In this document: piece after piece, positions 4,130 through 37,191 of the stretch | How positions within the stretch are numbered: the first letter of the stretch is position 1 | Layout: the number at the start of each line of letters is the position of its first letter | Source: Lingula anatina | Taxonomy: Eukaryota > Animalia > Brachiopoda | Direction: 5' to 3' | Assembly (NCBI GenBank): GCA_051362555.1 | Contig: CM120643.1 | Location: 11,816,644 to 11,880,643, forward strand | DNA: 64,000 nt | Made by a program: the position numbers and the translations under genes | The notes under the pieces: model-generated | Told to the model about the DNA's origin: nothing | Databases searched by the model: none | What the model saw: only the letters and a program-made list of their open reading frames with translations

Positions 4130-4236
4130 ACCATCCAATCATATTTGCCTGAAATAGGGCAGGAATTTGGGTCACCCAATCACCAAATAGACCGCCTTAT
4201 TACAAATCTCTGTGGCATATTTCACACAAGTTATTC
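4130..4236 (+). promoter_or_regulatory. H3 promoter (2 CCAAT boxes, TATA-like TACAAAT, cap-like TTATTC), now directly upstream of the full-length LINE
   Basis: CCAAT 4135 and 4176, TACAAAT 4201; same layout upstream of the uninterrupted H3 genes at 19270-19398 and 28523-28651. Confidence 0.75.
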
Positions 4237-4290
4237 CATTCATTCATTCGATTCCACATTCATTCATTGAATACCAAGCTAATACCAATA

Positions 4291-5994
4291 ATGTCCTACG
4301 CTAAGGCTGTTGTTTCCAACACAAAACGTCCTTTTAAGGACGATGAGGTAGAGATGTTGAACCACCTTAGGGAGGTACTGGCATCTCTACCGCCACAGCT
4401 TCGGCAAGCTCTGCTAGCTGATCCCTGTGGCGAAGGTAAGTATGAACAGGATTGCTCTCCCAGGGGCGAGGAGATGCAGGTGTCGGAGCAGGACCGTGTA
4501 CCTGCAAGCGAAGATACGAGTACAACTTCTCCCATGGGCGAGGAGAATTCAGATGCGGAGCAGGGCCGTGTACCTGCAAATCGGTTGGTTAATTCTCCAA
4601 GGGGCGAGGAGATTCAAAACACAGAGCAGGGCCGTGTACCAGCTCTCAGTGGTCCTTTTCAGGGCCACAAAAAGGCGGCAGATATCTCTGGTCTCCCGAT
4701 GACCAGAGAAATGATAGACCCTGAAGAGGGCAAAACCCATCCAAAAAAGGGCAAGACACCCGGTCTCCCGACGACCGGGGACAACGAAATGGATTGGGCA
4801 GTTAGTGAGCAAAGAAAGAAAAAAGGGGAAAAGAGGAAGACAGGTCCTCTGGTCGGTGACCAAACCAGCCCCATTAGAGGGGAGAAGGAGGGAGATAATC
4901 TCTCAAAGAAAGCAAGGAAAAAGGCCGAGAAAAGGGCCAAATTGAACGAGAAGGTGGAGACTGTGGGAGGCGATTTCCGCAAAATCGCCGAGAAGGCTCC
5001 AGCAGACGACCCTCCACGGGGCGAGGAGGGAAACTCCGAGGAATCAGAGTGGACCGTTGTCCACTCTAAAACTAAAAAAAGCGGACAAGAAAACAAAAAA
5101 GCAGAAAGACCTAGGCCCATACTTTTAGAAAATTTGCCTAGGCACCTGGATGACAACCCACTCAAGTTAAAGAAGGTACTTGGTGATGCCGATATCACCA
5201 AAATTGTGAAAACAAAGAAAGGTAACACCCTTATCTTTCCCAAAGATGAGGTTTCGGCTGAGAAGCTACTTGCCCTGAAAAATAAAGAAAGCCAACTAAA
5301 TGAGGTTGGCATAAGAAAAGTAGCGAACAAAAAACAAAGTAAAGAGAATTTGTGCGTGGTCATCTGCAACATAGCAGTTTCAATAACAGACGATGAAATT
5401 AGAAAAGAAAAAGGTCTGTTAGCTAAGCGTATGTTCAGCGCTAAAACAGGAAGCGAAATTAACAAGGTGAAAATTACGTGTGAAAACAAAAATCAAAAGA
5501 AAGAGTTGATTGAAAACGGTTTATTGCTGGGTTATCAAAAATACAAAATTCGTGACTACAAGCCAGTCACAGCACCAGTACAACAGTGCTACAAGTGTCA
5601 ACAGTTCGGGCACGTAGCCGAACACTGCAAGTCAGCCGAGACTTGCAAAAACTGTGGCGGGGCGCACAGTCATAAGGAGTGCAAAGAAAGCACCCGCAAA
5701 TGTGCCAATTGTAAAGAAGAACACCCGGCATCTTTCAAAGGATGCAAGGTGTATAAAAAAGAAATGAACACCGAACAAAAACGCATATCAATAGACAATG
5801 CCAAGAAAGGGAATGTTGCTGAATCTATCAAACTGGCCATATGCCTAGCCAAATTACTGATCAAAGTGACTTCAAAAAGACTAAAAATACAGGCAAACGA
5901 AAGCGACATATGTAAAGACATAGCAGAGGCTGTAGCAACTACTTACAAGGTCAGCATAGATGGTGAAACTATCCACCACGTTGCCTTTAAGTAA
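4291..5994 (+). CDS. LINE ORF1, gag-like nucleic-acid-binding protein (~567 aa from first ATG)
   Basis: Three C-terminal zinc knuckles CYKCQQFGHVAEHC, CKNCGGAHSHKEC, CANCKEEHPASFKGC (I/Jockey/R1-type ORF1); low-complexity acidic/basic N-half. Confidence 0.92.
   Translation: MSYAKAVVSNTKRPFKDDEVEMLNHLREVLASLPPQLRQALLADPCGEGKYEQDCSPRGEEMQVSEQDRVPASEDTSTTSPMGEENSDAEQGRVPANRLVNSPRGEEIQNTEQGRVPALSGPFQGHKKAADISGLPMTREMIDPEEGKTHPKKGKTPGLPTTGDNEMDWAVSEQRKKKGEKRKTGPLVGDQTSPIRGEKEGDNLSKKARKKAEKRAKLNEKVETVGGDFRKIAEKAPADDPPRGEEGNSEESEWTVVHSKTKKSGQENKKAERPRPILLENLPRHLDDNPLKLKKVLGDADITKIVKTKKGNTLIFPKDEVSAEKLLALKNKESQLNEVGIRKVANKKQSKENLCVVICNIAVSITDDEIRKEKGLLAKRMFSAKTGSEINKVKITCENKNQKKELIENGLLLGYQKYKIRDYKPVTAPVQQCYKCQQFGHVAEHCKSAETCKNCGGAHSHKECKESTRKCANCKEEHPASFKGCKVYKKEMNTEQKRISIDNAKKGNVAESIKLAICLAKLLIKVTSKRLKIQANESDICKDIAEAVATTYKVSIDGETIHHVAFK
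4651..4666 (+). other. Histone-mRNA-type stem-loop embedded in LINE ORF1
   Basis: GGTCCT-TTTC-AGGGCC followed by ACAAA; compare host GGTCCTTTTCAGGACCAC (H3) and GGCCCTTTTCAGGGCCAC (H2A). Confidence 0.7.
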
Positions 5995-6038
5995 AACAGA
6001 CTCAAACACACTAACACGCATCAAACCCCTACCCAAAG

Positions 6039-8765
6039 ATGGCGGCACACCTGATGCATATCAACATAAACAGTCTTAAAACCAAGAAACAACTCTTAGT
6101 TGAATATCTGGTAGAGCATAAACCTGACATCGTATGCATAAACGAGACAAAGTTGAGTGAGAAGACAAAAATATCTGTGAGCGGCTATCAGGTGTTGCGC
6201 AGGGACAGAGATGCGCATGGAGGCGGAGTGGCTATACTCGTTAAGAAAGATGTAAAGTTCCAAGCTATCAATACCAGCAACCTTAATGCTGAAATACTGG
6301 GGATAGAAACTACGATAAATCAAATAAAAACGGCTATAGTTTCACTGTATAACCCACCTCATACAACCCCTGACAAAGCAGTATTTAAGCACTTTACTGA
6401 TCAATATCAAAATTGTCTATTTATAGGCGATTTTAACAGTAAGCACGCTTTCTTTGGTTGCAAGAAAACGAACAATAACGGAAACGTTCTCTTTGACATA
6501 ACTGAGGAACTAGATCTGATAAATCTTAATGATAATGGCGAAACTACGCACATGGCCACTAATGGCAATACTGATACGCTGGACATGGCTTTTGTCACGA
6601 CTCAACTTTACTCGAAAATAGCGGACTGTTATGTAGGTGAAGACGTCGGTAGCGACCATCTACCCCTACACGTAAAAATCATTCAGAATAACCGAATAGC
6701 AAGAGCACCAACTGTCTTACGGCGGAATACAAGAAAAATAAACCAACCACTGTTTGACCATCTAATTTCTGAAAATCTAAATGGCGACGCAGTCACACCT
6801 ACCACCACTGGAATAGACGAAGCTTGTGAGAATGTGACCGAGACACTAGTAAATGCACTTGAAACCGCATGCCCAAAAACAAAGGTACGAGAAAATGTAT
6901 GGAGAGTAAGCGAGGACACCCTTAAGCTTATAAAACTGAAAAGAAAACTAAGACGCCTGGCTCAAAAGAAAGAAGGCCCTTTCTATAAAATCATGTACAA
7001 CTATATGACAAAACGGGTCAAAGAAGCCATCAAAAAAGAAAAACAAAAAGCTTGGGAAACCGCTACCTCTATGCTAAATGAAAGAAAAATGGACAAGACC
7101 TTCTGGGACATGTTTAAAAGGCTAACTAGCACTGGCAAAGCTAAAGAAACATCTGAAAAGCCTGTACTCAAAGAAAATGGGCAACTTACAACAAACGATG
7201 CGGAGAAAGCAAATGCATTTGCAAATACCCTTGGCAAGATACATAACACCCACGAGGGGGTCATATTCGACGACGGTTTTAAAGCGGTGGTGGAAAACTA
7301 CGTCGGTAAAAACAAACACAAATTCGATCCCTTATCTAACCCGACATTAGAAGAAGGGGACGATCACAAAATTCTAGATAAAATCACAATAGATGAACTT
7401 AACGGAAATCTGAAAAATACAAAAAACACGTCACCAGGTGACGACACAATAACAAACGGGATAATTAAAAAAGCGCCTGTATGTCTGAAAAACAAACTAT
7501 GCGACATTTATAACAACTGTCTGCAGTTGGGATATTTCCCCACAATATGGAAAAAAGCGACTGGTATAATGATACCCAAACCTGAGAAAGATCACAAAGT
7601 AACAACGAATTATAGACCGATCAGCCTGCTAAGCTGCCTAGGCAAACTATTCGAGAGAATAATCGCCACTAGAATAAAAGAAAAACTAGAAAATGACCAA
7701 TTTTTCAATAAATGGCAAAGAGCGTACATGAGCAAGAAAGAAGGAATGGAACATGTGTTAAGACTAGCTGAAAGTGCACAACTGGCAATAAACAAAGGCT
7801 GGGTTACGGGCGCTATGATGCTGGACGTGGAGAAGGCTTTTGACTCAGTTTGGCACGCTGGGTTAAGGTACAAACTAGCAAATAGTAACCTGCCAGTTAA
7901 GATTGTCCGCTTGCTGTCATCTTTTTTGAAAGACAGAAAGATCAAGGTCAGAATCAAAGGCGAGGAATCCGAATATGTTAGTCTCAATGCTGGCACGCCT
8001 CAGGGGTCTGTAATCAGCCCGTTGCTATTTCTAATATATGTGAACGACCTACCAATAAACCCAAGATACAACACCGAGGTCTCTCAATTTGCAGACGATT
8101 TAGGCATGTGGACATCATGCAAAAATGTAAAAAGCATAGAAATCAGACTGACGGGCGTGATAAAGGATCTCGAATTATGGTGCTCTCTATGGCGGATAAA
8201 ACTAAACACCAAGAAAACACAATTAATCATCTTTTCAAAATCAAATGAACAACCCAAGCTTAACCTCACATTATTTGGCGACCGATTAGAAACATGTGAG
8301 GAAGTCACACTGCTGGGAATCACATTCGACAGAAAACTAGGTTTCAAAAAACACGTAGACAACACAGTGAAAAGAGCTAGGAAAAGAACTGGCCTTCTCA
8401 TAAGACTCAGAGGAACAAACTGGGGGGCATCGAGTGCCTGCCTCCTCAAACTATATAAATCCTTCATTCGGCCCGTACTTGAGTACGGGGCAGTTATACT
8501 AGCTGGCATCAACAAGACAAGGCTCAAAGATCTGCAAAAAATCCAGAATAGAGCGCTACGAATAGCGCTCAAATTACCAACAAAAACTTCGATCGTAACG
8601 CTGCACAAGCTGGCCAACATTGAATATATATCAAGCAGACTATTTTTTCTGGGCACAAAAACAATTAGCAGGTTCGAAAATAGCCATCTATTCAAAGAAC
8701 TTAAGCTAAAAAACATAATATTAAGCAAACCAGGCAAAAATACTACCCTTGACTTATATAAATAA
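6039..8765 (+). CDS. LINE ORF2: APE endonuclease + reverse transcriptase (908 aa), no RNase H
   Basis: APE motifs NINSL, NETKL, YNPP, GDFN, SDHLP; RT motifs YRPISLL, LDVEKAFD, PQGSVISP, QFADD; GTNWGAS C-terminal motif. Confidence 0.97.
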   Translation: MAAHLMHININSLKTKKQLLVEYLVEHKPDIVCINETKLSEKTKISVSGYQVLRRDRDAHGGGVAILVKKDVKFQAINTSNLNAEILGIETTINQIKTAIVSLYNPPHTTPDKAVFKHFTDQYQNCLFIGDFNSKHAFFGCKKTNNNGNVLFDITEELDLINLNDNGETTHMATNGNTDTLDMAFVTTQLYSKIADCYVGEDVGSDHLPLHVKIIQNNRIARAPTVLRRNTRKINQPLFDHLISENLNGDAVTPTTTGIDEACENVTETLVNALETACPKTKVRENVWRVSEDTLKLIKLKRKLRRLAQKKEGPFYKIMYNYMTKRVKEAIKKEKQKAWETATSMLNERKMDKTFWDMFKRLTSTGKAKETSEKPVLKENGQLTTNDAEKANAFANTLGKIHNTHEGVIFDDGFKAVVENYVGKNKHKFDPLSNPTLEEGDDHKILDKITIDELNGNLKNTKNTSPGDDTITNGIIKKAPVCLKNKLCDIYNNCLQLGYFPTIWKKATGIMIPKPEKDHKVTTNYRPISLLSCLGKLFERIIATRIKEKLENDQFFNKWQRAYMSKKEGMEHVLRLAESAQLAINKGWVTGAMMLDVEKAFDSVWHAGLRYKLANSNLPVKIVRLLSSFLKDRKIKVRIKGEESEYVSLNAGTPQGSVISPLLFLIYVNDLPINPRYNTEVSQFADDLGMWTSCKNVKSIEIRLTGVIKDLELWCSLWRIKLNTKKTQLIIFSKSNEQPKLNLTLFGDRLETCEEVTLLGITFDRKLGFKKHVDNTVKRARKRTGLLIRLRGTNWGASSACLLKLYKSFIRPVLEYGAVILAGINKTRLKDLQKIQNRALRIALKLPTKTSIVTLHKLANIEYISSRLFFLGTKTISRFENSHLFKELKLKNIILSKPGKNTTLDLYK

Positions 8766-9169
8766 TGGTACAAATTGTGCATATGAAACGGTCTAACGGT
8801 AGCGACCCCGGTCTCCCGATGACCGGAGGAAGAAAGGAAAAAATACAACCCTGAAAAGGGCAACCTCAGTCCACAAAATAAGGATAAACACATCTGGGCT
8901 CCCGATGACCAGAGACAAGGAAATGGAATGAGAAAACACAATAATACTATAAAGGCGGAGGAAAAAAGGTATATAATATATGTATATTATATATAAAAAT
9001 ATTTATTATAATAACAAACATCTGGAAAAAATTAACAAGCTGGAAGGGGCGGCCAGCGCGCAAACTGGAAAGAGACGGTCAAAAAAAAAAAAAAAAAAAA
9101 AAATCCAAGCGAGACCAAAACCACGTACAGACAAACAATAGAGGCAGAAGACAACAATAAACACGTTTT

Positions 9170-9241
9170 GGGGATTGAAAGAAGCTCTTGTATTTTAATG
9201 CACGAGACTTCGTAACTTTCCCGTGTCGGCTTCGCCGACAC
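9170..9241 (+). ncRNA. Conserved structured 3'-terminal RNA element of the histone-targeting LINEs (also 2342-2413 and 36661-36725)
   Basis: TTGAAAGAAGC-[hairpin]-GACTTCGTAACTT-CCC-TGTCGGCTWCGCCGAC shared by families A and B, with compensatory changes in the inner stem. Confidence 0.7.
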
Positions 9242-9267
9242 AAAACCTATACATCATTATCTTTTAA

Positions 9268-9717
<450 letters not shown>

Positions 9718-9743
9718 CTTCTTGATTTTATATCTAACAAAAC

Positions 9744-9784
9744 GGTCCTTTTCAGGACCACCTCAACAAATCCAGAAAAGCTAG
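9744..9784 (+). terminator. Histone 3' stem-loop + downstream element (representative; also 11873-11888, 13571-13586, 18443-18458, 19836-19851, 23685-23700, 27696-27711, 29089-29104, 31183-31198, 31480-31495, 34743-34758, 37218-37233)
   Basis: AAAAC-GGTCCTTTTCAGGACC-AC followed ~16 nt later by GAAAAGCTA in all four gene classes. Confidence 0.92.
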
Positions 9785-15879: not shown

Positions 15880-17950
15880 GACAGTTTCAGCATGTCTGCA
15901 AAGTGTTCTTTCTTGGTCTTGTACAACAATTTAAGATAGAAGGCTTGTATTTATTTAAATGAAAACGTCCTGGAAAACGTTAAAGAATATTCTTATCTGG
16001 GCAAAACCTTCACCAATATAACCTTATAATAATATAACAATATTACCAATATAACCTGCACAACTTAAAACAAAAAGTAATGAAGGCCATGTTTGCACAA
16101 AAAAGCACTTTATCCTCCAAAAACCTACTCCTACTCCAGTATAACAAATGATAGCAGATCCTTACAGATATAGTTAAATCCATGCAAAACTACTGCATCA
16201 GACTTAAAAATCTTTGAAATACAAGAATATTGAAAAAAACATTACACAAAAAATACATTGCCAAAATGAGAATAAGTGACCATGAGCTGGTGATAGAGAC
16301 AGGCAGGCACATGAAAATCCCTCTGGAAGAAAGAACCTGCACACATTGTAAAACAGAGGACAAGTAACCTTTCTTCCTCACTTGCAGCAAGTATCCAAAT
16401 CTATGCGGATGATACTTCCCTCTTTATGCCCTCGCGTCGGGGAGATGTTGATTCACATGCTATATTACAAGGTGACCTACGTACCATTGAAAATTGGTCC
16501 AATAAATGGAAACTCAATTTTAAACCGGCAAAGTGCCGCGAAATTATATTCGGCAAAGAAAATGATAATAGTACATACCCTGAATTGTATATAAACAATA
16601 CCATGATACCTAGGACAAAGAGCCACAAACACCTGGGACTAGTACTTGATTCAAAACTAAATTTTAATGATCATACTGATCATGTTTGCGAAAAGGTTCA
16701 ACGGGCCGTAAATGCACTAAAACCTCTATACTGCAAAGTTAGGTCCAAACATTTAAATGTTATATATAATGCCTTTATCCAATCACAATTTGATTACTGT
16801 GACATCTTCTATCATAACTCACTCCAGAAGAAATTATCGAAACTATCGTCTCTTCAATACCAAGCCGGCAAAATAGTACTGGGAGCCTTACCTAGCTCTT
16901 GTACCTCCAAAATATTTGAACAACTAAATTGGATTTCTCTATTTGATAGAAAAAAAAATGCATGCTCAAAAAATTATGTTTTCAGTCATGGCGAATTTGG
17001 TCCCCTCCTATGTTTCTGATATATTCCGCCCATTCAGAAATCCTTTTCCAATCATAACCCGAGAAAATAACAAAAGAGACTTTAAACTTCCTCCTAAATA
17101 CCCCCGTACCTCAGTTAACTATTTTCTGATGTCTTCATGGGATCAACTCTCCTCCTCCACTAAATCTTTACCTTCAATCTCATCTTTCAAGAACTCGATA
17201 AAAAAACACCTCACTGCTGGGTCGCTTTCAACAACAACACTAAACTTGAACAGAAATCATGAAAAAATTCTTAACAGAGCGAGGGTCGGTTGTTTATTTA
17301 GAGCAGAATTGTTTAGGCATAACTGGACTACTATTGATACACCACACTGCACCTGTGGTGCCCTTGAAACCCCTCTTCACTTTTTCTTCAGATGCCCTTT
17401 ACTCAATTCAAAGTACCCTCCCCTTTACCAAAAAATAAATGAAACTCTACATGCAAGCAAGACCTCTTTCAAAACACAAAAAGAAAAGCTGTCGTTATTT
17501 CTCTACGGTCATAAATCCTTATCACCCACCCAAAATGAAATTATCTTCGACACTGTTGCAAATTTTCTTCTCGTAAACTTTGTTATCACTTAATAGGTAT
17601 TATCTCTTTTCCTCTTCTTTCTTTCTGTACTTAACTTGTGCTCCTGATATATATATATATGAAGTTTTACATTTACTCTGTTGTATATATGTATATACCT
17701 ATCCATTTGTTTTATTTATTTATTTACTTATTTAATTTAATTTTGTGGAGAGCATATAATGCTTCCAGCGCCTTGCCTCCACTTCATTCTTTTGAATAAA
17801 CGTTGTTAAAAAAAAAAAAAAAAAAAGTATCCAAACTGAGCGACAAAGCTCAATTCCCTCCCAAATCCTGAGAGATAAGATTATGAATTAGCAGGCAGTG
17901 ATCAGAAACTATTATTCATCCTCCTCAACCCTCAAGGTCATAAATCAGTA
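15880..17950 (+). mobile_element. Old decayed LINE remnant (also ~26580-27210, ~33610-34240), here split by a younger CR1 insertion
   Basis: Fragments ENVKEYSYLG and AKMRISDHELVIETGRH...CTHC with stops. Confidence 0.6.
16400..17824 (+). mobile_element. 5'-truncated CR1-like LINE with poly(A) tail and 11-bp TSD, unique to unit 2
   Basis: Begins at YADDTSL; HKHLGLVLDSKLNF, CTCG..ETPLHFFFRCP; one frameshift in an A-run ~16950; AATAAA+poly(A); TSD AAGTATCCAAA 16389-16399 / 17825-17835. Confidence 0.88.
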
Positions 17951-20673: not shown

Positions 20674-22030
20674 CTGAAATAAAATATACAAAGAAAAATC
20701 TGATATTAATGTCTTTGCTTTTTGTGAATATAGTTATCACAAAATATAATAAACTAAAATTTGCATAGTTGTTCCCAAAAAATTCTTGAAACAGACTGCA
20801 TAAATAATGTAAATGGAGAGCTTAATTGTGCAGATTTTTTCTTAAAACTTGCCAACAGAAGAGAGATGTATCTACATGTATGTCTTGTTCTTCACATGTT
20901 ATTACTCTTTTCCTATAACAAAAAAAAAAAAAAAACAAACAAACAAACAAAAAAAAAAAAATAAATAAAAAGTAACTTTTTAGAAAAAAACAGGGACTAA
21001 CTTTGATTGCAGAAATGCATTCATTAACCATTGGTAAGCATGGGAAAAATTGTTGTTTACTCCAGAAAAATTCAGTTTTTGGTTTCAACGAACACTCATT
21101 ATCCCTTTTAGGCACTTTATTTCAAAGAGAGATTTTTATTTATTTATTTGTTTATTTATTTATTTATTTTTTTGGAAACATTATTTTTTTATCTGTCGCA
21201 AATGTCAACAGGACCAAATAGAAGAGGAACATCTTTTTTCTTACTGCCTAGCCTAGTGTGCTGTGCTTTGCTAAAACCATAGCAGCTCCAATATCTTGTT
21301 GCTGTTAACAAATAATCAAATAAATACTCCAGGATACACAGTGATTTCACTTAATTTAAATGCAAATGTCAACATACTACATGAAAATAAAAAAGTAAAG
21401 CGTGCACTAATCAGCAGTGTAAAACATGACAATTAACGAGTGATCCTTGCTTCAGAAAGAGATAGAATTTCAGTTGAAAGAGAATCTTTTTTGGGCGAGT
21501 AACTAAGAATTAGTACAGTTACCACTGTGCTAAATGGTGAAGCAGAAAAATATTGTCTGATCAACTAGCTCTGCTCATGCTACTGCAAGGGAATTTCTCT
21601 CTCTCTGTCAGTACGTTGGGCCATGAAATTTTCTTGTCCCATTTCAAATCACATTGCAGCACAGAGATATAGCATTCATATTCATTGCCTTGGAAATTAA
21701 AATTGTGTTGAGGTTCATCATTGCTTCTACTTTTCAAACAGGTGTGAGATAATTTACTTAGTGGTTTAGGTGTTGAGAAACACAGCCATAATGGCAGCAG
21801 AGAAAATGCAATGTGTGCAAAAATAAATAAATAAATAAAAAATAAAAAAATAAAAAATAGAATAAGAAGAATGCAAAACAAATTCCTCAGTGTCAAAGTG
21901 TAGGGATTCATGTACGTGTGCGAACACGATAATTCCAGTTTGTTCTTATAAACATTAGGTATAGCTTTTCTGGAAAGATGTGGTTGGTCCTTTTTGTGGA
22001 CCGTTTTGTGCAAATCAATGACTTGTTGAT

Positions 22031-24607: not shown

Positions 24608-24869
24608 TAACTATGCCCAGCGTGTTGGAGCCGGTGCCCCAGTGTACGTGGCTGCCGTCCTCGAGTATCTGGCCTCTGAGATTCTCGAGTCGACGGGAAA
24701 TGCTGCCCGTGACAACAAGAATTGTTGCCCGTTACTTGGAGTTGGCTATTCGCAACGATGAGGAGTTGATCGAGCTGCTGGGAGGTGTCACCATTGCCCA
24801 TGGGGCGGTGTTCTGCCAAACATCCAGGCTGTCCTTCTGTCCAAGAAGAGCAAGTCAGCTGCCAAGTAA
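24608..24869 (+). pseudogene. H2A: Diverged 5'-truncated H2A pseudogene
   Basis: Starts at the NYAQRVG codons; 8-nt deletion near 24720, further indels; stem-loop with a 1-nt deletion at ~24900. Confidence 0.9.
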
Positions 24870-27740
24870 ATTAGCGCCTGCTAGTTTAAACTGCAAAACG
24901 GTCCTTTCAGGGCCACTCACAAATTCCTGGAAAAGCTATAACAAAAAATGAATGTATAGTAATGAGAATAAATAAAAATAAAATTGTAACAAATAAAGCA
25001 CATATCATGCTGGGCCTGCAGTAACTATTATTCCATATGTATGTGAAAACAGCCGTGATGTTATGTTTAATCAAGGAGTTATAACTCCTTGGTTTAATCA
25101 TTTCCACGAGTTTATTGTGTACTAACATCTTAGTTATCTTACAAAAACAATGCCATGTTGTTATGTTTTCAGACACTGTATCCAGATTACTGTATCTGTA
25201 CGTGTCATCAAATAAATGAGTTGTTCACCCTATTTCTATTTATTTATTAATCACCACCTAAAGGGGGGGAAGACATTAAATAGAACATACGTTAAGTTGA
25301 ACACATAATAACATCCCTTAATAAAACCATTCCATGATACATAATAAGATCATTCTAATAGGTCAGGTTAAACTATTGGACAAATTTATTATAAATAATA
25401 AACAGGATATATATATAAAAACAGTTCAGATTTGCACCATGTTAGCTTCAAGGGCACCCACATTATATCCTGGACATTTAATTAAGAATCTAATGCTGTC
25501 AATATTATTAGGCCTGACAAGAAAGTATGATGGGTAGGAGTCTGTATATTTATATACAGTATAATGATTTGACAGGATTGATGTTAAAGGCAAAAAAAGC
25601 CAAATAATTAAATTACCCTAATATGCATGGCCTGTAAAAAAAAAAAAAAAAAATGCCAATTGATCACATACATTCAAAATAATAATAATAATGATAATAA
25701 TAATTATAAAATATATTTTCTGAGTGGCTACGTTGGGTAAAAAGAAGGTTCTTAGAATGTCCCTTAGAATATCAAAATGGTCAGACTATTTTTATCAATA
25801 CAATAGTAATAGAAAATTTTAATTTAAACTTTATTATTTACATTTATTTTTGGTTTTGTTTTGTTTTATTTTATCTTATTTATTTTATTCTACCATGTGT
25901 GTTTAGCAATGTTTGCCTCCAACATGGTCACTGCACAACAATTGAGCAAGGGAGACTCATTTCTGAAATGAGCTCTCAAAGGTGTGTTTTTATGCTGTGT
26001 AGCTACCTTGTCGATTCAATAAGAATGAATGTCATTGATCAGTATAATGATCAAAATACAAGAGAACTTAACTTCACTCTGAGAACAGAATCTGAGACAG
26101 GGGGGTTGGCCAGAAATTTTGTTCTATTTCTCCCTAAATGTTGACAAAACCACTCTTCCAGTACTTTATACTGATTACACAAATAACCAAACACACCTAC
26201 CGGTCAGTATAATGAAGAAAAAAAATTTCAACCCTATCTGGCAAAAATTGATGAAAACTGACAGCGCCGGCACTTATGAAAATCACTCAAAATCACCCAG
26301 AAACAACCCGTCTCCGATTTTTTCCAAACGTGATGAAAATCAATCTACCACACCTGTCATTCATAAAAAATGTGTTAACGCACCCGGATCACTTCATTAA
26401 AGCCCCCAATTCCAGCTTTAAAGATGATCCAAAAATAACCTCTGAGAACAGAATCTGAGGGGGGGGTGGGGGGGTGGGGGGGTGGGGGGTGTTGGCCAGA
26501 GTTTTTCCTCTGTTTCTCCCTTAATGTTGACAAAACCACTCTTCCAGTACTTTATACTGACCACAAATGACCGATCGGACTGACAGTTTCAGCATTTCTG
26601 CAGAGTGTTCTTACTTGGTCTTGTACAACAATTTAAGATAGAAGGCTTGTATTTATTTAAATGAAAACGTCCTGGAAAACGTTAAAGAATATTCTTATCT
26701 GGGCAAAACCTTCACCAATATAACCTTATAATAATATAACAATATTACCAATATAACCTGCACAACTTAAAACAAAAAGTAATGAAGGCCATGTTTGCAC
26801 AAAAAAGCACTTTATCCTCCAAAAACCTACTCCTACTCCAGTATAACAAATGATAGCAGATCCTTACAGATATAGTTAAATCCATGCAAAACTACTGCAT
26901 CAGACTTAAAAATCTTTGAAATACAAGAATATTGAAACAAACATTACACAAAAAATACATTGCCAAAATGAGAATAAGTGACCATGAGCTGGTGATAGAG
27001 ACAGGCAGGCACATGAAAATCCCTCTGGAAGAAAGAACCTGCACACATTGTAAAACAGAGGACAAGTAACCTTTCTTCCTCACTTGCAGCAAGTACCAAA
27101 CAGAGCGACAAAGCTCAATTCCCTCCCAAATCCTGAGAGATAAGATTATGAATTAGCAGGCAGTGATCAGAAACTATTATTCATCCTCCTAAACCCTCAA
27201 GGTCATAAATCAATATTTATAGCACAATGGATAAGCCCATCACAGTAACTTTTAGATTGGATATATATTTTATCCCTTATTTTAACATTTATTTATATTT
27301 TTGATGTAAGCATAATAAAGTAGTGTTAGAAGTAGCTTAGACAGCACACTTTGTTAAACAAAGAATTACAATCTTTATTTCTTAATTGAGCTGTTATAAT
27401 CTGAATCAAAGGCGCATTAGGTGCTGAAATAGTACATTAAAAAAAAAACACAAAAAAAAACTTTAATATTTAATTTGGTGTATTTTGTTCTGAGACTATG
27501 ACGTTTATTGTAATACTGGTCTGTATTTCATTGTGCACAAGTTCGCATTTTTTTGGGCCCTATAGGAAAGGAGCTGTTACGGAAGTCTTGACGTGGGAGA
27601 TTAAAAGCATCATAAACGCTAGTCATGTTAACGACCAGTATAATTTACATGAAGAGACTTGAACATAATAGGCATAGCTTTTCACGAGTTTTGGTGGTCC
27701 TGAAAAGGACCGTTTTGAGGAGTAGAGCTAAATAATTCGT

Positions 27741-31047: not shown

Positions 31048-31226
31048 AAATAAATAAAATAAGAAGAATGCAAAACGAATTCCTCAGTGTCAAAGTGTAG
31101 GGATTCATGTACGTGTGCGAACACGATAATTCCAGTTAGTTCTTATTAACATTAGGTATAGCTTTTCTGGAAAGATGTGGTTGGTCCTGAAAAGGACCGT
31201 TTTGTGCAAATCAATGACTTGTTGAT

Positions 31227-31453
<227 letters not shown>

Positions 31454-32373
31454 ATCACTTCTAGTTTACACCTCAAAACGGCCCTTTTCAGGGCCACTCA
31501 CAAATTCCTGGAAAAGCTATACCAAAAATGAATGAAGAGTAAAAAGATTAATATGCAATAATGGTCATGAATAGGAATAGTTATAAAATAAAGGGTAGAA
31601 GACACGTTCCCTTAATATTTAAGAATGGTCAGATTGTTTTTAATAACACAATAGTTACAGAATTTGTCAATTTAAACTAGTATTTACATGTAGCATTATT
31701 CCATGCTCATACCATCACTACACAAAAATGAATAATTAAACTCACATCAGTAATGCATACTGTTCAAAGATGCACATAAATTCACAATATATCAAACAAA
31801 TGGCACACACATTGTGGAAATATATAATATTAGACGAAGAGAAATGGCATTTAGATTTGTTTTTACCGAGATGGATGACACAAAATTATAAACACTGCAA
31901 TTAAGAATCAATCGTTGAATTTTCAGTACATATTCATACTTAATGAAAATGAAGAAGAAAGAATCTCAACTGTTTTGCGAGTTTTGCAACATTGCCAAAG
32001 AGACAATGTTTCATGTATTTTAGGAATGACCACATGTACAAAATATCTGGACTTGCCTTATTAATGCTGTAAGGGAAAGTATGAAAACGAATATAGAGAG
32101 ACATCCCATCCCAATTCCAGCTTTAAAGATGATCCAAAAATAACCTCTGAGAACAGAATCTGAGACAGGGGTGGTGGTGATGGTGGTGATGGTGGTGGTG
32201 GTGGTGGTGGGGGGGGGGGGGGGGGTTTGGCCAGAGTTTTTGCTTTATTTCTCCCTTAATGTTGACAAAACCACTCTTCCAGTACTTTATACTGACTACA
32301 AATTTATACTGACTACACTATAATGAAGATAAAAATTTTTGTTGACAAAACCACTCTTCCAGTACTTTATACT

Positions 32374-35138: not shown

Positions 35139-35671
35139 TCAATTTTCGGCCTATAAATACCCTACTATCCGACGCCAACGACCTTAGGCAGCATATGTTA
35201 ACTTGATTGGCCAAAACGATCGAGTCACTCTCCACGCAGAATCCCTTCGCTCCTCTCAGTTAGCAATGATCCACTGCTTGGAGATTATTATTTGATTCAG
35301 AAAATTGTTCTCTGTGCCCTACACTAAACTCTTAACCCTAAGCATGAGTACATTCTCATATTTTCTTCCTAAAAGCTGATTTCAAGAAAAAATTTATGGA
35401 AGTTTCATATGGCAAAGGTTTGTTAAGTTTGTTTTTACAAGGATTTACAAACTTGATGATACACACAGAAATATAGCATATTTGTGCACTCTGCCTCGGA
35501 TTCAAAGCTGCACATTCTAGCGCACCTGTTTGGGAGTAATGAATATTCAATAAATTTGTGAAGATACCATCCAATCATATTTGCCTGAAATAGGGCAGGA
35601 ATTTGGGTCACCCAATCACCAAATAGACCGCCTTATTACAAATCTCTGTGGCATATTTCACACAAGTTATT

Positions 35672-37191
<1,520 letters not shown>

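Follow-up and report, generated by a model that had tools for sequence, protein, structure and literature searches.

Why should a LINE that sits at the start of a histone gene carry, inside its first open reading frame, the hairpin found at the 3' end of histone messages? SLBP bound to that hairpin supports the export and translation of non-polyadenylated histone mRNA and its S-phase-limited stability, and SLBP is not known to have more than a marginal role outside histone messages. An earlier look at this DNA from its letters only (the sequence-only reading) had pointed to GGTCCT-TTTC-AGGGCC followed by ACAAA, in sense orientation within ORF1 of the LINE, and had suggested molecular mimicry. 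That hairpin is present at 4651-4666 on the + strand. Our analysis of the window (the whole 64,000-nt stretch of Lingula anatina DNA) and of LINEs at histone starts elsewhere indicates that the hairpin is real, lies beyond chance and recurs in separate lineages, with a function that is putative.

A site-specific LINE at the start of a histone H3 gene

The first 38 kb of the window consist of core histone genes in a tandem array. Within this array lies a full-length APE-RT LINE, designated family B (4237-9266; this and all features below are on the + strand unless stated), in the same orientation as the H3 gene behind it. Its 3' end is followed by the target-site duplication and 28 nt and then by the H3 ATG (9307), and terminal poly(A) is absent. 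The left copy of the duplication, ACACAAGTTATT (4224-4235; 12 nt, or 13 nt counting the next C), shows no difference from its partner at 9267-9278. From an initiator-like sequence and the TATA spacing we infer that the duplication point is the H3 transcription start. The H3 gene itself (9307-9784) retains its own hairpin at 9744 plus an HDE, and RNA reading through from the LINE is predicted to end there.

ORF1 (4291-5994, 567 aa) has a repetitive N-terminus and three CCHC-type knuckles, the zf-CCHC match being weak (E 0.019). ORF2 (6039-8765, 908 aa) encodes an apurinic endonuclease followed by a reverse transcriptase (Pfam Exo_endo_phos_2, E 5.6e-18; RVT_1, E 7.5e-32), and Pfam reported no RNase H match in it. 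The element resembles those of the Jockey or I group, to which it may belong, our RT trees having contained no named reference elements. Three 51-nt repeats within ORF1 (4455-4643; 78-80% against the middle copy) have CAGGGCC in common with the 3' arm of the hairpin at 4651-4666.

A structured motif near the 3' end (9170-9241), common to family A and relatives, is likely the end recognized by the reverse transcriptase. Its form, GGG-(C)TTGAA(G/A)-stem-G(A/T)AAC-TT-CCC plus a hairpin, is clade-wide with freely varying stems; it occurs in the window at 9170-9241 and 36660-36725 and at the 3' ends of loci L001-L004, L007, L010, L011, L013, L014 and L017. It resembles a minimal hammerhead core; Rfam found neither a ribozyme nor any other family in the family B LINE besides the histone stem-loop, and none for the 3'-end motif.

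Two further copies bear on the choice of site. Family A, whose reverse transcriptase is 60% identical to that of family B, is represented by a 5'-truncated copy (35672-36740) at the same H3 site, flanked by the same 12 nt (35660-35671 and 36741-36752). Separate insertions of families A and B with an identical 12-nt duplication at H3 mark these LINEs as site-specific elements of the APE type. Having no 5' end, family A stands outside the hairpin scoring. A 5'-truncated copy of family B itself (419-2433) is joined to the start region of an H2A gene. It matches the full copy at 1977 of 1981 aligned bases; the upstream H2A promoter stretch is gone and there is no duplication. An internal A-tract about 165 nt before the family B end measures 23 nt in one copy (9081-9103) and 50 nt in the other (2228-2277), the copies being otherwise 99.8% alike, and a single AATAAA lies at 9156, 3' of the A-tract.

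Several histone genes of the array show changes of their own. The H2A gene behind the truncated LINE, which has lost its promoter stretch, carries a G2-to-T change in its own stem-loop at 2887-2902 (25.7 bits). In an H2B gene on the - strand (21980-22005), ACAAAAA stands in place of the loop, and 13 of 14 bases agree with those just 3' of the hairpin at 4651-4666; local slippage or an exchange with the LINE might account for this change. At 24613-24951 and 31200-31520 we found an H2A copy in decay, with the T3/G14 combination of the LINE in its hairpin but one T fewer, and the joint of an H2B-H2A deletion. The poly(A)-tailed 3' fragment of a further LINE, with a reverse transcriptase only 25% like that of family B, lies in a spacer (16380-17830).

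Two histone-type hairpins in the 5' part of the LINE

The hairpin at 4651-4666 (here SL2), followed directly by ACAAA, spans the ORF1 codons G-P-F-Q-G-H (aa 121-126). It fits the histone consensus GGYYYU-UYUH-ARRRCC, with a 6-bp stem, a U.G wobble as pair 3 and a 4-nt loop. As the sequence-only reading had it, SL2 is one substitution away both from the host H3/H4/H2B hairpin, GGTCCTTTTCAGGACC, and from the host H2A hairpin, GGCCCTTTTCAGGGCC; it matches the host H4 3' end in 21 of 23 columns. Of the 14 matches to the consensus in the window, one is SL2 and the other 13 mark the ends of histone genes; shuffled sequence gives 0.03. The earlier estimate of about 1 in 1000 per 5-kb element is too high: with pairing required, the chance per 5036-nt sense strand is 1.9e-4 if bases are uniform, or 4e-5 when the composition of the LINE itself is used. 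Against the Rfam Histone3 model SL2 reaches 18.4 bits (E 1.9), below the gathering cut-off of 34; intact host hairpins score 31.8-39.9 bits, and many true host hairpins (28-32 bits) also fall below the cut-off.

The surroundings of SL2 are unlike those of a histone gene end, which agrees with the sequence-only reading. Its 5' flank is CAGT and the A-rich flank (AAAAC in the host) is absent; the HDE, GAAAAGCT, occurs nowhere in the family B LINE, the sequences downstream of the hairpins having been compared too. SL2 lies about 415 nt from the LINE start, the H3 hairpin about 465 nt from its own, and the flanks of SL2 can pair to extend the stem to 8 bp, as can those of the second host's hairpin described below. 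None of the 40 rows of within-species differences listed (of 818) falls within SL2, which says nothing on its conservation, about 0.14 being the number expected in 4651-4666.

A second candidate, SL1 (CGTCCT-TTTA-AGGACG, 4327-4342), spans the codons R-P-F-K-D-D, starts 36 nt 3' of the ORF1 ATG and has AAAA immediately 5'. It departs from the consensus solely in the first pair, which is C-G and not G-C, and retains G2-C15, U6-A11 and both loop uridines. Its pair probability is 0.96-0.97 in folds of 4233-4700 and 4233-5100, and with the flank included it matches the host H2B 3' end in 21 of 23 columns. It looks as though one G had dropped out and the last base had then, in this presumed order, changed so that the sixth pair was regained. 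Searches with Rfam Histone3 at E up to 10 reported neither SL1 nor the hairpin of the second host.

Folding predictions separate the two hairpins. SL2 lies upstream of a cassette of hairpins, A-B-A' (4685-4780), in which GGTC-TCCCGAY-GACC occurs twice around CCCTGAAGAGGG (B, 4719-4730). In nascent RNA SL2 is predicted to fold at 0.97 until about position 4722; once B exists, 4653-4664 would pair over 12 bp with 4719-4730 (0.93) and SL2 would fall to 0.014 or less. In full-length RNA SL1 is the better predicted site; SL2, by prediction, would be open chiefly in nascent RNA. Only 1.6 kcal/mol separates the two best structures of 4630-4800, so that a protein, once bound, could keep SL2 folded. 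A second A-B-A' cassette, which could pair with SL2 or the H2A hairpin of the host, lies in the 3' UTR (8808-8915), and its B repeats SL2 in inverted form at 14/16 positions. Hairpin motifs A, B, C and D have no match in 80 metagenome loci and are therefore family-specific. The 5' region of the LINE as a whole is rich in hairpins (z -7.2).

Hairpins in other LINE lineages at histone starts

The strict consensus was present in two of the 80 loci of the metagenome set, L045 and L010, against 0.03 expected. L045 is a distant LINE (26% ORF2 identity) that stands behind a tandem copy and whose 3' end abuts an H4 start (16/16 residues). About 245 nt into this element we found ACAAC-GGTCCTTTTCAGGACC-ACT, followed by three near copies. 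This hairpin scores 28.9 bits in Rfam (E 2.6e-4; gathering cut-off 34), has the 5' flank CAAC, folds at 0.97 in the 5' region and lies more than 1000 nt upstream of the first ORF1 ATG. The match in L010 (3133-3148) is about 210 nt past the 3'-end motif, in a hairpin-rich stretch starting CATTC, and is possibly the 5' end of another element.

The prokaryote-assembly set comprised 11 loci, seven of which are animal histone arrays of a second host; whole arrays of this kind (L082-L088 and L099-L105, in G001-G003) are present as contamination in bacterial genome bins. The second host's LINEs, 34-43% identical to family B, lie just upstream of H4 or H2B in repeated insertions. A search with the 5' UTR yielded seven copies of the family, at H4, H2B, H2A and H3 starts. 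L095 and L096, two of the family's copies that sit at H3 and H2A starts, have the hairpin and ORF1 sequence and show no match to ORF2.

All seven copies that have the 5' UTR carry a hairpin about 150 nt in, 9-14 nt before the ORF1 ATG. Its three variants, GGTTCT-TATT-AGAACC (three copies), GGTTCT-TTTT-AGAACC (two) and GGCTCT-TCTT-AGGGCC (two), all lie within GGYYYT-HHTH-ARRRCC, the wider consensus with the loop HHTH. Every one of the 56 cells pairs, one pair having changed on both sides (U-A to C-G) and one on one side; loop position 2 varies, and G2-C15 and loop U3 are constant in 7/7. Each kind of change occurred once, and 24 of 500 shuffles scored as high. These hairpins are not fresh copies of the host's, since they differ from its own GGCCTT-TTTC-AAGGCC. 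Downstream of the host's own hairpins stands a conserved sequence, CACGATCARTGCC, in place of a purine-rich element; CACGATCARTGCC is absent after the LINE hairpin, which folds at 0.99 in the 5' region and has the 5' flank CTCT, without an A-rich stretch.

One second full-length family of the second host, a single copy at an H2B start, gave no hairpin match in either part scanned. Another LINE lineage (L018, 3106-3222) ends within the first codons of H2B and has no 5' part; it was left out of the tally together with L087 and family A, likewise without 5' ends. Among histone-start lineages with a 5' end, three of four have the hairpin within 450 nt, or two of three when the window LINE, chosen for its hairpin, is excluded; the chance of the consensus is 7.6e-5 per 450 nt. 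Presence in related histone-targeting families, the check that had been proposed for mimicry, thus came out in its favour. As a control, 82 other LINE loci (271,631 nt) contained the wider consensus once in sense, in L010 beyond the element end (0.046 expected), and not at all in antisense; many of these loci lack true 5' ends or flanks, which leaves their insertion targets partly undefined. Thirteen metagenome loci besides L045 that have at least 1500 nt upstream of ORF2 contained no match.

An RT tree (a quick tree of 20 rows, with groups named after earlier trees had been seen) rejects joining family B with L045 and the second-host lineages (AU p 0.0003 and 0.0001); on another RT tree, at least three changes of the histone-start label are required. 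The rejection allows several gains of the hairpin, or one gain followed by losses. Coincidence, which from the window LINE alone we had held slightly more probable than not, lost favour with the hairpins in independent lineages.

Relatives of ORF1 and transcripts

Among 150 ORF1 relatives listed, the closest, P0127 (43% identity), has near its N-terminus the residues N-R-P-F-Q-G-D (aa 21-27), which can encode the hairpin and blend R-P-F-K-D-D with G-P-F-Q-G-H; MAFFT aligns them to the latter, that is, to SL2. Counted at the level of proteins, hairpin-compatible hexapeptides of a first set gave 2 of 154, a weak excess (shuffle mean 0.5; 11 of 100 shuffles as high). A wider hexapeptide set gave 2 in the first 50 aa against 0.075, a post hoc result, the set having been defined after P0130 was seen. 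Word-based ORF1 searches gave two weak matches each, and three scans of viral contigs gave none.

In a poly(A) run (X12), 1003 reads fell on the LINE; none of the 30 bins of 4285-8945 was empty, the depth on the presumed sense strand being 6-61. Other families contribute to these reads, since 452 of the 1003 are less than 90% alike. No pile-up of ends is listed in 4285-8945, in a type of library that cannot reveal tail-less ends; X15, the sole library without a poly(A) label, gave six reads. Diverged X12 transcripts align in short islands, two of which contain SL2 (4650-4703, opposite strand, and 4623-4673). One abundant poly(A) transcript (about 130-180 reads) contains diverged LINE 5' pieces on the opposite strand, 4454-4508 and 4650-4703. 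The indels listed for sample X10 (12 of 76 indel rows) sum, within the 5' part of ORF1, to multiples of 3, which places SL1 and SL2 in constrained coding sequence.

Discussion

We favour the reading that the hairpin is a cleavage-proof docking site for SLBP that brings the nascent LINE RNA into the histone mRNP route, and put its probability at about one half. At the inferred H3 start the LINE stands in sense; a truncated copy adjoins H2A, and relatives occupy the starts of H4, H2B, H2A and H3. Full-length copies would be transcribed from the histone promoter within the histone locus body. Their first 90-420 nt hold at least one consensus hairpin, with no HDE after it in the two hosts whose own element is known. 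Nascent RNA could then be loaded with SLBP and U7 would be unable to cleave it. The gain, in what is the weakest step, may be early entry into the histone mRNP: protection, export, and S-phase or oocyte timing. We place docking on nascent RNA because all copies of the hairpin are 5'-proximal and so are made early in transcription.

The components of this reading differ in strength. Selection for the histone hairpin pattern is, in our judgement, quite probable. Binding of SLBP to the candidate hairpins seems fairly likely. G2-C15 and loop U3, as given in the accessible part of bioRxiv 10.64898/2026.10.14.759114, are conserved SLBP features, the histone hairpin standing 25-60 nt after the stop codon; the available text of PMC12775136 describes SLBP as reading the second G and contacting adenosines 5' of the stem. 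SL1 and L045 offer such adenosines; SL2 and the second host's hairpin do not. HeLa CLIP data, in the portion available of PMC4604434, gave SLBP no credible non-histone target. Docking has also to contend with a histone-start family that bears no hairpin (H2B, second host), and with the position of SL1 and SL2 in coding sequence through which ribosomes would pass. Moreover, read-through into H3, which is likely and could explain both the missing tail and the exact site, could give the RNA a true terminal hairpin anyway. An internal hairpin as a substitute for a tail is made less likely by this, a read-through RNA being predicted to end at the true hairpin of H3; the earlier suggestion of a tail-less LINE RNA in need of SLBP is weakened to that extent. 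A broader scenario, which we put forward tentatively and at slightly less than even odds, is that LINEs colonised histone starts several times in independent events and that at least three lineages converged on a 5' decoy stem-loop without an HDE, on which SLBP is loaded to give access to the histone locus body and perhaps a way back there.

As to mimicry in general, the proposal finds partial support: a sense 5' hairpin in two of three other histone-start lineages, with the histone pattern kept as the hairpin mutates. Its competitor is a generic one, in which such LINEs carry 5'-end hairpins, some captured from abundant host histone RNA, that are kept for folding or for ORF1 binding and not for SLBP. 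The near identity of SL1 and SL2 to the host H2B and H4 ends, SL2 as an inverted copy of the LINE's own motif B with CAGGGCC in common with the upstream repeats, and the hairpin-rich 5' region would all suit this explanation. It leaves unexplained why the second host's hairpin is unlike that of its host and yet stays in consensus across three variants, and why the 13 loci with long sequence upstream of ORF2 have no match; we regard it as unlikely.

A different role would be that of a homing tether, hairpin-bound SLBP returning the LINE particle to the histone locus body and helping to aim insertion at histone starts. One second-host family at the starts of all four genes, and family B at both H3 and H2A, would be in keeping with this; the junction sequences differ among the H4, H2B, H2A and H3 targets, which suggests aiming by place and not by sequence. 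Tethering by host factors is known for Ty1, Ty3, Ty5 and Tf1 (as described in the available part of PMC5371812). However, a tether would be better placed in the 3' UTR, all hairpins are 5'-proximal with two inside ORF1, and the histone-start family without a hairpin speaks against it. The same family means that the localisation to the histone locus proposed by the sequence-only reading has no strict need of the hairpin, and we consider the tether improbable.

SLBP near the cap or the ORF1 start might alternatively deliver initiation factors, or store the RNA in oocytes like maternal histone messages. The hairpin stands just before the ORF1 ATG in all seven second-host copies and just after it in family B. 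On maternal histone RNA the roles of SLBP include some that do not depend on U7 (PMC11997800, as far as its text was available), and SLBP is reported to bind an internal viral stem-loop, altering translation (accessible text of PMC12166091). Translation control of this kind fits poorly with L045, whose canonical hairpin is far from the first ORF1 ATG, and with the effects of SLBP on translation being described for a 3'-terminal or 3' UTR hairpin (PMC5368982, in the part available), and we give it a rather small chance. That the hairpin is an attenuator truncating many transcripts about 430 nt in, and so limiting the LINE, as the sequence-only reading had alternatively offered, is very improbable: SL2 does lie near the distance of the H3 hairpin and folds well in nascent RNA, but there is no HDE, presumed-sense poly(A) reads span all bins of 4285-8945 with no end pile-up listed, and lineages differ in where the hairpin lies (90 to 420 nt).

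Docking on nascent RNA can be set against known systems. The LINE hairpins resemble the histone mRNA 3' stem-loop (RF00032; SLBP, U7 snRNP, HDE) in their 16-nt form, in G2-C15, U6-A11 and loop U3, and in their closeness to the host's own sequence. They differ in being internal and 5'-proximal (in ORF1 or 5' UTRs), without an HDE, with partial flanks and on retrotransposon RNA. By the absence of the HDE and by position, the LINE hairpin is outside the class of histone processing signals. R2 RNA has a ribozyme at its 5' end. R2 (28S rRNA genes) and Utopia (U2) are, in the available parts of PMC8869645, PMC4640811 and PMC8789037, site-specific non-LTR retrotransposons of multicopy genes; the LINE described here instead targets protein-coding histone starts, several per family, and has an APE-type endonuclease and a host-style protein-binding signal. 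Ty1-AC40, Ty3-TFIIIB, Ty5-Sir4 and Tf1-Sap1 likewise direct insertion beside the start sites of one promoter class (PMC5371812, same portion), through protein-protein contacts of the integrase, whereas the candidate here is an RNA mimic on the LINE, for which tethering is a rival reading. Stem-loop 3 of the SARS-CoV-2 frameshift element offers SLBP on an internal hairpin of a parasite RNA; the text available of PMC12166091 describes no histone-consensus hairpin and no link to the histone locus.

In the literature searched, which lay outside subscription journals and curated repeat libraries (the latter may contain such families), no paper dealt with LINEs that target histone starts or bear the hairpin. 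The accessible text of a 2026 review of histone gene organisation has no match to 'retrotranspos' (PMC13525598), and Drosophila histone arrays hold LTR and DNA elements (bioRxiv 10.1101/2024.06.11.598575, in the part available).

Taken together, it is likely that LINEs at histone starts pass their RNA off as a histone message that lacks the cutting signal, and histone arrays are indicated as a multicopy landing site. If docking is true, these LINEs would provide a natural test of SLBP apart from U7 cleavage, in export, storage, timing and retention in the locus body. They would also provide a testable idea of how unrelated LINEs find histone starts with little sequence in common, and an RNA that mimics a processing signal of the host would be a route to the expression and aiming of mobile elements.
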